Shown piece after piece: positions 8,719 to 47,476 of a stretch of 64,000 nucleotides of DNA (positions are counted from its first letter, which is position 1; every line of letters begins with the position of its first letter). The DNA is taken from contig JAOUPS010000001.1 of the NCBI GenBank assembly GCA_029879735.1, positions 18,831-82,830 on the forward strand. Direction: 5' to 3'. Source of the stretch: Candidatus Bathyarchaeota archaeon (GTDB lineage: Archaea > Thermoproteota > Bathyarchaeia > Bathyarchaeales > Bathycorpusculaceae). The translations under genes and the position numbers were made by a program. The notes under the pieces were generated by a model. That model was given only the letters and a program-made list of their open reading frames with translations. It ran no database searches and was not told where the DNA came from.

Positions 8719-9942
8719 CGCGCGCTAGCCTGTTTAGAAATTGTTGTTGATTTTGTGGTTGCTGTCTTTTCTTGGGTTTCTCTGCTTGTTTTTTCTGTGT
8801 TTGATTGCTGTTTCTATCTGGAATACATTGTTCCGAGCTGGCTTCTACCTTTTCCTAGGCGTTTCTTTGATGGCTAACCCTGTATTAACCCGTCTTTGAT
8901 GGGTCTTGTTTTGCCTCATTGGGTGGTGTAGTGTTTGATGCTGCGGATGAGGCTTGGCTTATGCTGTCGGACAGCTGTTAAAGCCACGACCAGCATGGCT
9001 GAGAAGCTCAGACAAGCATGGATAAAAGCCTGTTTTAAGCCTCTAACTCTCAAGTGGTCTAGGAGAAGCCATTCTTTGGCTCTGCTGAACACCCTTTCTA
9101 TGCATACTCGCTTCCGGAAGAGGTTGGCCAGACGCTTAACTCCGTGAACCACGAAGTCACGTCCAACTTTCAGGGCGTTCTTGATCCTTGAACTTTTCCT
9201 GTAAGGTATTACCGCTTCAGCACAATACTGCTTAACCGTTTCCCTAACCTTTGCCGAGTCGTATTGAGCGTCAGCCAGAACAGTTTTGAAGCTTATGCCT
9301 CGACACTTCAGCTTCTGCAGCAACGGCTTAAAGCACAGCTTCTCGTTCACGTTACAGGGCTCAACAGTGAATGCTAGTGGCAGTTCAGAGCTTGTGCAGC
9401 ATGCCGTGTGCACCTTATAGCCGAGTATGAATCCTCTTCTTCCCCTTCCAACGCGAGCGTCGTGGTCGCTTTTCCCTGATCTGTTGTCTAGGCTTCTCTG
9501 GCTGTAAGCTTTGATGGCTGTGCTATCCAAAGCAACCACTTCACTTTTTACCGCTCCGTCCTTCAACAGCTGTTTCAATAGTATAGAGAACACCTTCTCG
9601 TACCCATCCCTGCCAAGCCTATGCCTAAACTGGGTGAACAAGCCGTGACTAGGCGTCTCCCGTCTGAATCCACATGCTCTAGCAATCCGCCTGTTCCTCT
9701 TCAGCAGCAACGCAAGCCGCCGATCGCTTGGAACACGCCACAGCTGTTTCAGCAACTGAGCCTTCAACATAGAAACAGGAGGATAAGGCTTCCTGCCAGG
9801 CCCGTCTCCATGATAAAGAGACATCAAAAACCTGCGAATAGAACCTAAATTCAGTGAACCAAGCACTTGCTTAATGTTCAAAGCTTCTTCCTAACATAAG
9901 CTTACCTAAACAACAAATTAATTTCTAAACAGCCTAGCGCGC
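8719..9942 (-). mobile_element. IS5-family insertion sequence, copy 1
   Basis: A single DDE transposase ORF with terminal inverted repeats: cctgtttagaaatt at 8729-8742 and aatttctaaacagc at 9920-9933. The ends are flanked by cgcgcgCTAG (8719-8728) and CTAGcgcgc (9934-9942). CTAG is read as a 4-bp target duplication; alternatively the inverted repeat extends to 23 bp and includes GCGCGCTAG. Confidence 0.85.
8916..9881 (-). CDS. IS5-family DDE transposase
   Basis: InsH-type N-terminus (GRKPYPPVSMLKAQLLKQLWRVPSDRRL). DDE candidates are ALDSTAIKAY, LADAQYDS and CIERVFSRAKEW. Confidence 0.9.
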   Translation of the reverse strand: MNIKQVLGSLNLGSIRRFLMSLYHGDGPGRKPYPPVSMLKAQLLKQLWRVPSDRRLALLLKRNRRIARACGFRRETPSHGLFTQFRHRLGRDGYEKVFSILLKQLLKDGAVKSEVVALDSTAIKAYSQRSLDNRSGKSDHDARVGRGRRGFILGYKVHTACCTSSELPLAFTVEPCNVNEKLCFKPLLQKLKCRGISFKTVLADAQYDSAKVRETVKQYCAEAVIPYRKSSRIKNALKVGRDFVVHGVKRLANLFRKRVCIERVFSRAKEWLLLDHLRVRGLKQAFIHACLSFSAMLVVALTAVRQHKPSLIRSIKHYTTQ

Positions 9943-44576: not shown

Positions 44577-44812
44577 AGTTAAACCTCAATCATTCTTAGC
44601 TGTTAGTTTCAATTACATATAACAGAAGTTTAATAACCCTTACTCTGTTTCTGAGTCTCTGGGTTCTGAAAGGTTTAAACGCGCTAAAAAAACCTTGTCT
44701 TGAACGTGCGCGTTAGGTGGTCAAATATGTCCGATCCAAATCCATCCTCGTTTTCTAAATTATGAGCTTCCATCTTTCTATAAGGCCTTGAAATTGCTTT
44801 ATTTTCTAGAAA

Positions 44813-46029
44813 GCGCGCTAGCCTGTTTAGAAATTAGTTTCTGGGTCTTGTGGTTGGTGTCTTTTTGTTTTCTCTGCTCGTTTTTCTTGGTTGAAGAGAT
44901 ATTTCTATCTGAAAACTAGAGTTCTGAACCATCTATTGCCTTTTTCCCGGTTTCTCGTTGATGATTAACCCTGTCTTATGCTTGTTTGACGTCTCTTCTT
45001 TCGCCTCATTGGGTTGTGTAGTGTTTTATGCTTCGGATGAGGCTGGGTTGACGTTGTCTAACAGCTGTTAAAGCCACGATTAGCATGGCTGAGAAGCTTA
45101 AGCAAGCGTGTATGAAAGCTTGTTCCAGTCCTCTGACTCTCAAGTGGTTTAGGAGTAGCCATTCTTTGGCTCTACTGAACACTCTTTCTATGCATACTCG
45201 TTTTCTGAAGAGCCTCACCAAACGCTTGACTCCGTGGACAATGAAATCACGTCCAACCTTCAGGGCGTTCTTAATCCTTGAACTCTTCCTGTAATGTATC
45301 ACCGCTTCAGCACCACACTCTCTCACGGTCTTCCTAACATTTGCCGAGTTGTATTGAGCGTCAGCCAAAACAGTCTTGAAGCTTACGCCTTGAGCCTTTA
45401 GCTTCTCCAACAACGGTTTAATGAAACATTTATCGTTCCGGTTGCACGGCTCAACCATGAATGTCATTGGCAGTTCACAGCTTGTGCAACATGCTGTATG
45501 CACTTTATAGCCAAGCATGAAACCTCTCCCACCTCGTCCAACTCTGGCTTCACAGTCACTTATCCCAGATTTGTTGTCAAGGCTTCTCTGACTATAAGCT
45601 TTGATGGCTGTACTGTCCACCACCACCTCACCTTTAACTACATTACTGTTCACAAGCTGCTTCAACAAAACATTGAAGACTCTCTGATACCCTTCCTTTC
45701 CTAATCGATGTCTGAACTGAGTGAACAAACCATGACTAGGTGTCTTCCTTTTAAACCCACATGCCCTAGCCATCCGCTTATTCCTCTCCAACAACAACGC
45801 AAGCCGTCGATCACTTGGAACCCGCAGCAGATGCTTCAACAATTGAGCCCTCAACATGCAAACAGGAGGATAAGGCTTACGTCCGCGCCCAACCTTATGA
45901 TAAAGAGACATCAAGAAACCGCGAATAGAACCCAAATCCAGTGAACCAAGCACCTGTTTAATACTCCAAGCTTCTTCCTAACAATAAATGGCTAAACCAA
46001 CAAATTAATTTCTAAACAGCCTAGCGCGC
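44813..46029 (-). mobile_element. IS5-family insertion sequence, copy 2 (diverged from copy 1)
   Basis: It has the same terminal repeats as copy 1: cctgtttagaaatt at 44822-44835 and aatttctaaacagc at 46007-46020. The ends are flanked by gcgcgCTAG (44813-44821) and CTAGcgcgc (46021-46029). Confidence 0.85.
45006..45953 (-). CDS. IS5-family DDE transposase
   Basis: 315 aa, roughly four-fifths identical by eye to ORF 8916..9881, with the same DDE boxes. Confidence 0.9.
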   Translation of the reverse strand: MLGSLDLGSIRGFLMSLYHKVGRGRKPYPPVCMLRAQLLKHLLRVPSDRRLALLLERNKRMARACGFKRKTPSHGLFTQFRHRLGKEGYQRVFNVLLKQLVNSNVVKGEVVVDSTAIKAYSQRSLDNKSGISDCEARVGRGGRGFMLGYKVHTACCTSCELPMTFMVEPCNRNDKCFIKPLLEKLKAQGVSFKTVLADAQYNSANVRKTVRECGAEAVIHYRKSSRIKNALKVGRDFIVHGVKRLVRLFRKRVCIERVFSRAKEWLLLNHLRVRGLEQAFIHACLSFSAMLIVALTAVRQRQPSLIRSIKHYTTQ

Positions 46030-46140
46030 ACTTTGTGTTTCATTGTATTAGCGAACGCTGGATACAATAGTTTTAAAAAGTTCAGGGATATTCTGTGTTT
46101 TATTCTTGTCTTAGGGTAGGACAGCTATATCTTATATAGA

Positions 46141-46148
46141 CGCGCGCG
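46141..46148. repeat. (CG)4 motif locus
   Basis: cttatatagaCGCGCGCGag, directly after a TATA-like box (46131-46138) upstream of the hydrolase gene. Confidence 0.9.
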
Positions 46149-46187
46149 AGAACGTGATTTGTAAGTGGGTCAAAAAGAGGGCAGAGT

Positions 46188-46787
46188 GTGCATATGCAAA
46201 TAAGTTTTAAGAGCAGGGGTGAGACGTTGGTTGCGACCCTTTATGGCACATCATCTGTTGGCGTTGTTCTTTGTCCACCACACCCTTTGTATGGTGGCAG
46301 CAGAAATGACACGAGAATTGTTAGAGTTGCCAAAGAACTAGCTTCGAATGACATCTCCGCTTTATGCATAGACTATGGAAGCTATGGTGAAGGTGTCAAA
46401 GAGGTTCAGAATGTTTTGGATGCAATTATGTTCATGCGGAGAAGAGTCAGTTCCTCGGGCTTGTTAGGATACTCTGTTGGTGCAGTGGTTGCCTCCAATG
46501 CAGCTGTTCAAGCCGAGATAGATGGTTTTGTTGCCATGTCAATTCTCCGGAAAGTGAATGGAATAGAGACGGACTTGAATTTTGACTGCCCAAAACTCTT
46601 CGTTCATGGGAAACGTGACAATGTAGCCCCATACTCAGAGTTCGAAAATCTTTACCTACAAGCAAGAGGAAGAAAAGAGAAGGTCGTTCTAGACACAGAC
46701 CATTTCTACATGGAAAACTATCCAACCATAATTGATCTGGCTTCCAAACATATACATAGATTCTTTGAAGAAGCATTCAGTAAATAG
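46188..46787 (+). CDS. alpha/beta-fold hydrolase (COG2945-like)
   Basis: Nucleophile elbow GYSVGA, HGKRD and DTDHF motifs in catalytic-triad order. Confidence 0.7.
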   Translation: MHMQISFKSRGETLVATLYGTSSVGVVLCPPHPLYGGSRNDTRIVRVAKELASNDISALCIDYGSYGEGVKEVQNVLDAIMFMRRRVSSSGLLGYSVGAVVASNAAVQAEIDGFVAMSILRKVNGIETDLNFDCPKLFVHGKRDNVAPYSEFENLYLQARGRKEKVVLDTDHFYMENYPTIIDLASKHIHRFFEEAFSK

Positions 46788-47182
46788 TCAGTTGTAAGTA
46801 ACTTAGAAGAACTCCAGTACACCATACCTTTGCGCGTGCGATCAAATCATGGAAACCATCAAAAGATATGGGCCTCTACGGAAAAAACAAATGAAATAGC
46901 TTGCGCGTCATTTCTAGGTACGCAAAATCAATAGAAGATTCTTCAACAAATCATAGAAACCTAATTAGCAAATTGTTTTGGTGGGTTAATTGAAAGAAGC
47001 TTATGGACTTGATAAAAATTCTGATTTGTTCTTGGGAGAGTTCAGGCAAGCGTAAATGAGACCTTGTTCATCGAGTTTTCAATTGAGACTTCTAGAGTGA
47101 GTGAATTAAGTCTTGCGAAGGGAAGGGGTTTGGGGAAGCCGTAGGTGTCCCTAGGAGAAGTGAAGTGAAGAAGAATAAAACT

Positions 47183-47190
47183 TTTATATG
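47183..47190 (+). promoter_or_regulatory. candidate TATA box for the Sm-like gene
   Basis: A purine-rich agaagaataaaa (BRE-like) is followed by ttttatat about 50 nt upstream of the ATG at 47240. Confidence 0.4.
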
Positions 47191-47239
47191 CAATGATAGT
47201 GTGGATATGGATAAATGAAGAGGAACTAAAGGTGCTTGG

Positions 47240-47476
47240 ATGGAACCTAGCAAAAAACCATTAAACGTGCTGGTTAAACAATTAAACGCCCATATTGCAG
47301 TCCTGCTGAAGAATGGCTGCGAATACAAGGGAAAAATGGTCAAATGTGACGGGCACATGAACATACTCTTAGAAGGAGCAACCGAATGCAGAAACGGCCA
47401 GCTGATCACCAATTATGGAAACGTCTTGTTGCGTGGAAACAACATACTCTGCATAATGTTGAATGTGCCTAGATAG
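47240..47476 (+). CDS. archaeal Sm-like (LSm) protein
   Basis: Sm1/Sm2 pattern VLLKNGCEYKGKMVKCDGHMNILLEGA ... VLLRGNNIL. An aggtg SD-like sequence lies 8 nt upstream of the ATG. Confidence 0.85.
   Translation: MEPSKKPLNVLVKQLNAHIAVLLKNGCEYKGKMVKCDGHMNILLEGATECRNGQLITNYGNVLLRGNNILCIMLNVPR

Follow-up and report, generated by a model that had tools for sequence, protein, structure and literature searches.

An IS5/IS1182-like insertion sequence of Bathyarchaeia that appears to insert into alternating (GC)n runs of its host

The stretch of Candidatus Bathyarchaeota archaeon DNA considered here (contig JAOUPS010000001.1, positions 18,831 to 82,830; 64,000 nucleotides, referred to as the window) contains two copies of a 1.2-kb insertion sequence (IS) that lie within the same GC-rich words, which raises the question of where the element ends and where the host DNA begins. 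With the bracket included, the copies span 8720-9942 and 44813-46029, and both read GCGCGC-TAG...CTA-GCGCGC. The flanks had been correctly described in an initial annotation of the window (cttcGCGCGCTAGcctgtttagaaatt at 8720-8728 and aatttctaaacagcCTAGCGCGCaatg at 9934-9942 for copy 1; aaaGCGCGCTAGcctg at 44813-44821 and cagcCTAGCGCGCactt at 46021-46029 for copy 2), and the same bracket words recur at both copies, namely GCGCGCTAG at the left end (8720-8728 in copy 1) and CTAGCGCGC at the right end (9934-9942). The junctions are ambiguous because CTAG, TA and GCGCGC are all palindromes and can be read as inverted or as direct repeats. IS5 duplicates a 4-bp CTAG/YTAR target, and the annotation proposed either that CTAG had been duplicated within an empty site GCGCGCTAGCGCGC, or that GCGCGC belongs to a 23-bp terminal inverted repeat (IR) of the element. 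In a third reading, not considered there, TAG forms the first three bases of the IS, and the duplicated target is all or part of GCGCGC. The host metagenome-assembled genome (MAG; Bathyarchaeia, 2.14 Mb, 156 contigs, 43% G+C) contains only these two copies, which are old and diverged, as had been noted: the nucleotide identity is 78.6% over approximately 1220 nt and that of the transposases is approximately 80%. Left and right, the alignment of the two copies extends to the outermost base of GCGCGC and no further.

IS-free alleles were sought by exact-protein look-up of the flanking genes, and two clean ones were obtained. For copy 2, a Logan contig of SRR7132593 (SRR7132593_1702880, locus L139) joins window positions 44741-44818 straight to 46023-47253, reading AAAGCGCGCGCTTTGTG where it bridges 44818 to 46023, with CCAGAAAGCGCGCGCTTTGTG across the insertion point. 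The empty site is therefore TTTTCCAGAAA-GCGCGCGC-TTTGTGTG, and the occupied one TTTTCTAGAAA-GCGCGC[IS]GCGCGC-ACTTTGTG. The second case is that of a metagenomic copy, L097, for which the occupied site (CTCAA-GCGCGC[IS]GCGCGC-CATGTT) is found empty in five contigs of other samples (L150-L154) as CTCAA-GCGCGCGC-CATGTT. Both empty alleles contain one GCGCGCGC and no CTAG, and at both sites an 8-bp run has given way to 6+6. Therefore, TAG...CTA is assigned to the IS, and the hexamers to a pre-existing host run, so that the GC hexamers beside the IS are in all likelihood target-derived host DNA. The search for IS-free alleles suggested in the initial annotation thus did not return the site reconstructed there. 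The 14-mer GCGCGCTAGCGCGC has no occurrence in this genome and a single one in 61 relatives (approx. 95 Mb). That lone occurrence (L121, G032:C98:2234-2247) is in an IS-carrying genome in the context ATA-GCGCGC-TA-GCGCGCGC-TATA, and may have been left by excision or by an extreme internal deletion.

Other searches for empty sites were negative. When joined flanks were compared by BLAST with the retrieved loci, the junction was spanned by L139 only; five joined junctions compared with 401 genomes of the order yielded no empty sites, the matches being the source genomes and an unrelated repeat; and flank-gene look-ups for L103, L093, L066 and L053 led to rearranged contexts with no clean empty site. 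Several IS copies were found at synteny breakpoints (L053/L163, L066/L161, L093/L160, L103/L157), with aligned flanks 91-100% identical. At L103 the alignment picks up again immediately behind another GCGCGCGC, at a distance of 112 bp from the IS, and at L066 a segment of approximately 44 bp with the GC run in it is itself an indel.

The bracket was then compared across loci retrieved by protein guidance, 11 from species genomes and 80 from metagenomes, at 76-89% amino-acid identity (transposase homologues in public data exceed 800). GCGCGC-TAG...CTA-GCGCGC is present in 67/67 unique insertions with both ends available and at 156 unique ends from Bathyarchaeia MAGs and metagenomes. With the copies gathered and their flanks tabulated, as the annotation had recommended, none of the 67 lacks the GC bracket, the DNA outside it is unrelated, and no direct repeat (k=1-9) was detected outside the 23-bp termini. 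From the 156 ends the consensus 5'-TAG(G/C)CTGTTTAGAAATT was derived, in which TAG and CTGTTTAGAAATT are nearly invariant. The same bracket encloses deletion derivatives of 352 and 460 bp and longer variants of 1.6-2.4 kb. In the latter (1.63-2.44 kb; L036:2940-5382, L038, L055 and L062/L063) IRs and GC bracket are unchanged, and in L036 the usual 3' arm has given way to approximately 1.4 kb of unrelated, possibly passenger, DNA. GCGCGC or GCGCGCGC is likewise found at the ends of more distant relatives, with transposases 32-41% identical, but the inner IRs are different, and the run adjoins CAGC, TAGC, TGGC, GGGC, AGGC or ATGT. Since CAGC...GCTG, TGGC...GCCA and GGGC...GCCC are inverted, not direct, between the ends, a duplication of CTAG or TA is ruled out for the clade.

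Near-identical copies of the IS were found to carry different run variants according to the locus, which argues against tips carried by the element. L068 and L069, with IS sequences 99.7-99.9% identical, have GCGCGC/GCGCGC and GGGCGC/GCACGC, respectively, and L036 and L037 (98.9% identical) have GCGCGT and CCGCGC. Among unique ends, mismatches to the run number 7 and 7 at the outer two positions and 1, 3, 1 and 4 at the inner four, with 0, 0 and 0 at TAG, so that the outer positions are approximately three times more variable (p=0.006), which is what a duplicated inner GCGC within a recognised outer GC flank would predict. L036 exhibits a matched imperfect repeat, GC[GCGT]-IS-[GCGT]AC, which fits a 4-bp duplication only, and a further GC extends the run in 12% of flanks. 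Because of these four points against IS-carried tips, along with the two sites at which 8 bp became 6+6, the data favour, as the simplest model, duplication of the central 4 bp (GCGC) of GCGCGCGC; provided that the runs are target-derived, a 4-bp stagger is moderately probable. The 23-bp IR of the initial annotation is thus retained in part: its 22/23 match is correct, the lone mismatch being at position 10 (C versus G), and the inner 17 bp, TAGSCTGTTTAGAAATT, are the IR, whereas GCGCGC is target-derived, as the run variants differing among IS 98.9-99.9% identical indicate.

On this basis, the element would be a 1.2-kb single-ORF (open reading frame) DDE IS of the IS5/IS1182 supergroup with 17-bp IRs as its true ends and a transposase that would choose, almost without exception, short tracts of alternating (GC)n, which abound between the genes of the host. 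Most probably, the two strands of GCGCGCGC would be cut at its centre with a 4-bp offset (GC|GCGC|GC), and repair of the gaps would generate xxGCGCGC-IS-GCGCGCxx, each hexamer being made up of 2 bp of flank and the 4-bp GCGC duplication. The geometry would be that of IS5, namely a 4-bp palindromic duplication, with the specificity shifted from CTAG to GCGC in a GC run. The model as a whole is held with good confidence, taking into account the universal bracket, the one-run IS-free alleles and the finding that run bases are not inherited with the IS; beyond these findings, we infer that the cuts are staggered by 4 bp and that the tract recognised, of alternating purines and pyrimidines, is longer than the run. 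The latter is hinted at by the flanks, in which purine-pyrimidine alternation carries on beyond the hexamers in 52-54% of insertions versus a background of 22.5% (p ~1e-7; AT alone, 25%), and one relative ends in CGCGCATGTGTG; a longer, Z-DNA-prone tract may thus be what is recognised. Only tentatively can it be proposed that the clade recognises a Z-DNA-prone alternating purine-pyrimidine tract with a (GC)4 core and that, in addition, (GC)n runs in some lineages of Bathyarchaeia are general hot spots of insertion or rearrangement and mark the borders of gene cassettes.

Several observations weigh against target duplication, and against the 4-bp length in particular. Inner-four variants not matched at the other end are present in five copies (L022, L048, L053, L086 and the right end of L069), of which L069 and L048 are young. 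As slippage can occur in (GC)n tracts, the run lengths are somewhat uncertain. The right flank of copy 2 is GCGCGC-AC where the empty allele continues with GC, and a 6-bp duplication with a G-to-A change fits about as well as a 4-bp one with two small indels. The clean empty sites are only two, both from diverged lineages with flanks 88-98% identical, and none was obtained for copy 1, all contigs with both of its flanking genes either containing the IS or breaking at it. Finally, for L053 and L023 the comparators lack a GC run at the breakpoint, although their contexts are rearranged and do not correspond to simple empty sites.

The assignment of the features of copy 1 follows from the empty-site logic and from run variants not being inherited with the IS. 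The left half of the split host run (GCGCGC, 8720..8725), for which a target origin is proposed by analogy with the empty sites and the inner GCGC of which is the probable 4-bp duplication, is followed by the IS proper (8726..9936, minus strand, 1211 bp, TAGCCTGTTTAGAAATT...AATTTCTAAACAGCCTA) and by the right half of the run (GCGCGC, 9937..9942). The terminal IRs are TAGCCTGTTTAGAAATT at 8726..8742 (plus strand), downstream of the transposase gene, and, reading inward, TAGGCTGTTTAGAAATT at 9920..9936 (minus strand), upstream of it. The transposase ORF (8916..9881, minus strand) encodes 321 aa with DDE_Tnp_1 and DUF772 domains; gene callers start it at an internal ATG (302 aa, 8916-9824). In copy 2 the left half-run (GCGCGC, 44813..44818) precedes the IS proper (44819..46023, minus strand, 1205 bp), which is the segment missing from L139, and the right half-run (46024..46029) is GCGCGC followed by AC. 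Its ORF (45006..45953, minus strand) encodes 315 aa, a length also called on four other assemblies, while exact protein look-up found no record of a 301-aa version. No Rfam family matched the two window copies or L023.

The proposed target is abundant in the host. Alternating GC runs of 6-13 bp number 694 in the 2.14-Mb genome (G000; examples in the window start at 1899, 41203 and 62201), and 76% of them are outside a long-ORF coding proxy that covers 79% of the genome, corresponding to an intergenic enrichment of approximately 12-fold. Within the window, GCGCGCTAG occurs 7 times versus 0.19 expected from shuffles. The possibility raised in the initial annotation that solo GCGCGCTAG sites are orphan IS ends was not supported. 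TA is favoured after the run, and G follows GCGCGCTA in 25% of cases, the rate given by base composition, so that a solo GCGCGCTAG site is an ordinary run with TA and an arbitrary base behind it. The 14 nt downstream of 47 such sites resemble the IR only to the degree that random DNA does, with at most 7/14 matching positions. That the run flanks form a repeat family was also considered and rejected, as the 1368 run flanks of G000 gave 24 tiny families of 2-3 members each, from which it follows that the runs are not IS scars.

Across the 61 relatives the number of GCGCGCGC per genome is patchy, from 0 to 439. It is higher in genomes with strong homologues of the transposase (median 20 versus 3, p=0.003), and two genomes rich in the 8-mer (G014, 227; G036, 262) have no homologue at all; therefore, the IS exploits a motif that exists independently of it. 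The target is thus of the type seen with repetitive extragenic palindromic (REP) sequences, namely an abundant intergenic host repeat independent of the IS. The mechanistic link between IS and GC motif proposed in the annotation was borne out in this sense, the IS inserting into (GC)n runs. A different repeat of roughly 355 bp (320-375 bp) with four copies in G000, all outside the window (C100:23127-23500, C84:29994-30354, C148:6603-6919 and C55:757-1077), starts directly after a run (GCGCGCG|ATGACATCAACAGTTTGC), and three of the copies also end at one (AAAACGAAA|GCGCGCGCG); no obvious terminal IRs were seen in it.

Among the alternatives, a 6-bp GCGCGC duplication at the same (GC)n target is the closest to the proposed model. 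GCGCGC is an exact direct, as well as inverted, repeat at both window copies, and the empty allele of copy 2 aligns as AAAGCGCGC[G/A]CTTT, with one substitution and a TG-microsatellite indel. L097, however, would need slippage of a GC unit, since 8 bp in the empty site became 6+6 rather than 6+8; 0/23 run variants are mirrored in the 6-bp register, in which L036 also does not fit; and in 87% of natural GCGCGC hexamers the run goes on for one or more bases on one or both sides, against an estimate of at most approximately 48% of insertions (19 left and 18 right flanks of 67). Taken together, a 6-bp duplication is possible but rather improbable. The tips might instead be part of the IS, as in the inverted-repeat-replacing transposition of IS1272, a Staphylococcus element of the IS1182 family that replaces target inverted repeats without duplication, in a family of which some members target palindromes (PMC5678879). 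Here the IRs would be of 23 bp with GCGCGC included, and the palindromic target run would be deleted. Such a process would agree with the best NCBIfam match of the transposase (IS1182) and with the maintenance of GC tips across transposases 32-41% identical while the inner IRs diverge; both empty sites fit it equally well, and the L053 and L023 junctions adjoin DNA for which run-less comparators exist. It would not predict runs differing at both ends of IS copies 98.9-99.9% identical, nor that the outermost bases are the most variable instead of the most conserved, nor the 4-bp imperfect direct repeat of L036. Extension of the run by GC in 12% of flanks would be impossible if the whole run were replaced, and an 8-bp palindrome is too short for the stem-loop extrusion of the IS1272 model. 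On balance, replacement is unlikely.

Less credit still can be given to the idea that GC runs are general recombination or cassette boundaries, and that a run-specific system, of the host or foreign, moves the IS along with many other segments. The run-bounded repeat of roughly 355 bp and the synteny breakpoints at or near GC runs (L103/L157, L053/L163) are in its favour; but there are just those 24 small families at the run flanks of G000, the IRs of the IS are canonical and its DDE transposase is intact, and the bracket is register-exact in 67/67 insertions and across the transposase clade, pointing to a specificity encoded by the transposase. This explanation is considered very unlikely. 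Lastly, duplication of CTAG (or of TA, 2 bp) inside the 14-bp palindrome GCGCGCTAGCGCGC had the established behaviour of IS5, the presence of CTAG at both junctions and the single 14-mer of G032 to recommend it. It is contradicted by both IS-free alleles, which have neither CTAG nor TA inside the run, by the near absence of the 14-mer from genomes of a group with at least 67 independent insertions, and by the inverted run-adjacent bases of the relatives, and it can practically be dismissed.

With respect to family, the copies have an intact minus-strand ORF (321 and 315 aa) that matches DDE_Tnp_1 (PF01609; E=1e-24 for copy 1 and 5e-21 for copy 2) and DUF772 (PF05598; E=2e-15 and 2e-16). The best-scoring NCBIfam transposase model is that of IS1182 (NF033551, 488 positions), with 170.9 and 153.9 bits, below the cut-off of 270, in three separate match stretches; the best of the transpos_IS5_1..4 models, IS5_4, gave 99.1 and 92.7 bits, also below the cut-off (140), at near full length (15-271 of 285). 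From sequence comparison, the transposase is thus placed within the IS5/IS1182 supergroup, reaching the cut-off of neither curated family. The IS5-like architecture recognised in the initial annotation stands: the copies measure 1211 and 1205 bp, with one ORF and 17-bp IRs, and 73 related full copies are of 1.19-1.22 kb. As in IS5 (IS5 group; InsH), there is a single ORF of approximately 320 aa with DUF772 and DDE_Tnp_1 in approximately 1.2 kb with short terminal IRs, and a 4-bp palindromic target duplication is the best-supported reading. Unlike IS5, the probable 4-bp duplication is GCGC within a (GC)4 run instead of CTAG/YTAR, in agreement with empty sites without CTAG; recognition would span at least 8 bp, the host is an archaeon (Bathyarchaeia) and the scores are under the NCBIfam IS5 cut-offs. 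As for IS1182 and IS1272, apparent IRs can here be confounded with target palindromes. Insertion into palindromes, with direct repeats of 0-60 bp or with none, is reported for that family, and the target GCGCGCGC is a palindrome as well, probably duplicated but possibly replaced. It differs from IS1182 in having a 321-aa transposase compared with a model of 488 positions. The targets of IS1272 are variable stem-loops of 22-30 bp that are deleted without duplication (PMC5678879), whereas the target here is a fixed 8 bp, apparently in part duplicated, with run bases stemming from the recipient; duplication is favoured over replacement of the IS1272 type.

A functional parallel is offered by the REP-targeting elements IS1397, ISKpn1 and ISPpu9/ISPpu10 (PMC1525189, PMC12288879), which likewise home to an abundant palindromic intergenic host repeat, so that genes are avoided and copy number tends to follow target abundance. 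These elements, in contrast, are of the IS3 and IS110 families and use other chemistries, and REPs are imperfect palindromes of approximately 35 bp with known host functions, whereas the target here is a (GC)n microsatellite of 6-10 bp. In the literature, no paper was found on IS elements of Bathyarchaeota/Bathyarchaeia or on (GC)n-specific IS.

Individual loci deserve mention. At L105 (2890-2945 and 4150-4200) and L107, which represent the same site, the target run is centred in a palindrome with arms of approximately 40 bp (GAAAGGTAACAAGTTGTAAT-GCGCGC-ACTACAACTTGTTACCTTTC), a hairpin-forming sequence split by the IS. To the right of the L023 copy (L023:3107-3230, L171-L177) are the terminal 115 bp, approximately, of another IS-like repeat, which ends GGGACAAGCCA|GCGCGC, has counterparts 80-92% identical in many of the family's genomes and carries a tip of the same type as the 32%-identical relative L126 (GCGCGC-TGGCTTGT). 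Close to GC runs at several loci (flanks of L060, L089 and L092; G000 C67:3975), the short motif TTTAACCCCAAACCCAA(C/G) or its complement is seen repeatedly. L028 has a broken IS ORF (195 aa) on an 880-kb contig labelled Chloroflexia (CAVVAJ010000005.1); cross-domain transfer was considered and rejected, given the neighbouring genes for an archaeal-type GlmM (scoring above the NCBIfam cut-off) and for archaeal GlmU-like proteins, and the bin label is probably wrong. The 1.2-1.4-kb contigs L025 ('Woesearchaeota') and L029 ('Bacteroidales') contain hardly more than the IS and are probably mis-binned.

The present analysis corrects the anatomy of an IS that is widespread in Bathyarchaeia, with ends at TAG...CTA and hexamers that belong to the host, and bears on the annotation of MAGs, in which the many solo GCGCGCTAG sites are not to be taken as IS scars. 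It also provides an archaeal example of an IS homing to an abundant intergenic micro-repeat of its host, with a specificity of at least 8 bp, a length and strictness uncommon among IS5-like DDE enzymes; the transposase could serve as a compact tool or model for sequence-directed, and possibly structure-directed, integration. The (GC)n motif of these genomes, with its patchy abundance, higher where the IS clade is present, becomes accessible to testing and, if Z-DNA-prone tracts were indeed recognised and (GC)n runs did serve as hot spots, the IS clade and the host motif would have expanded together.

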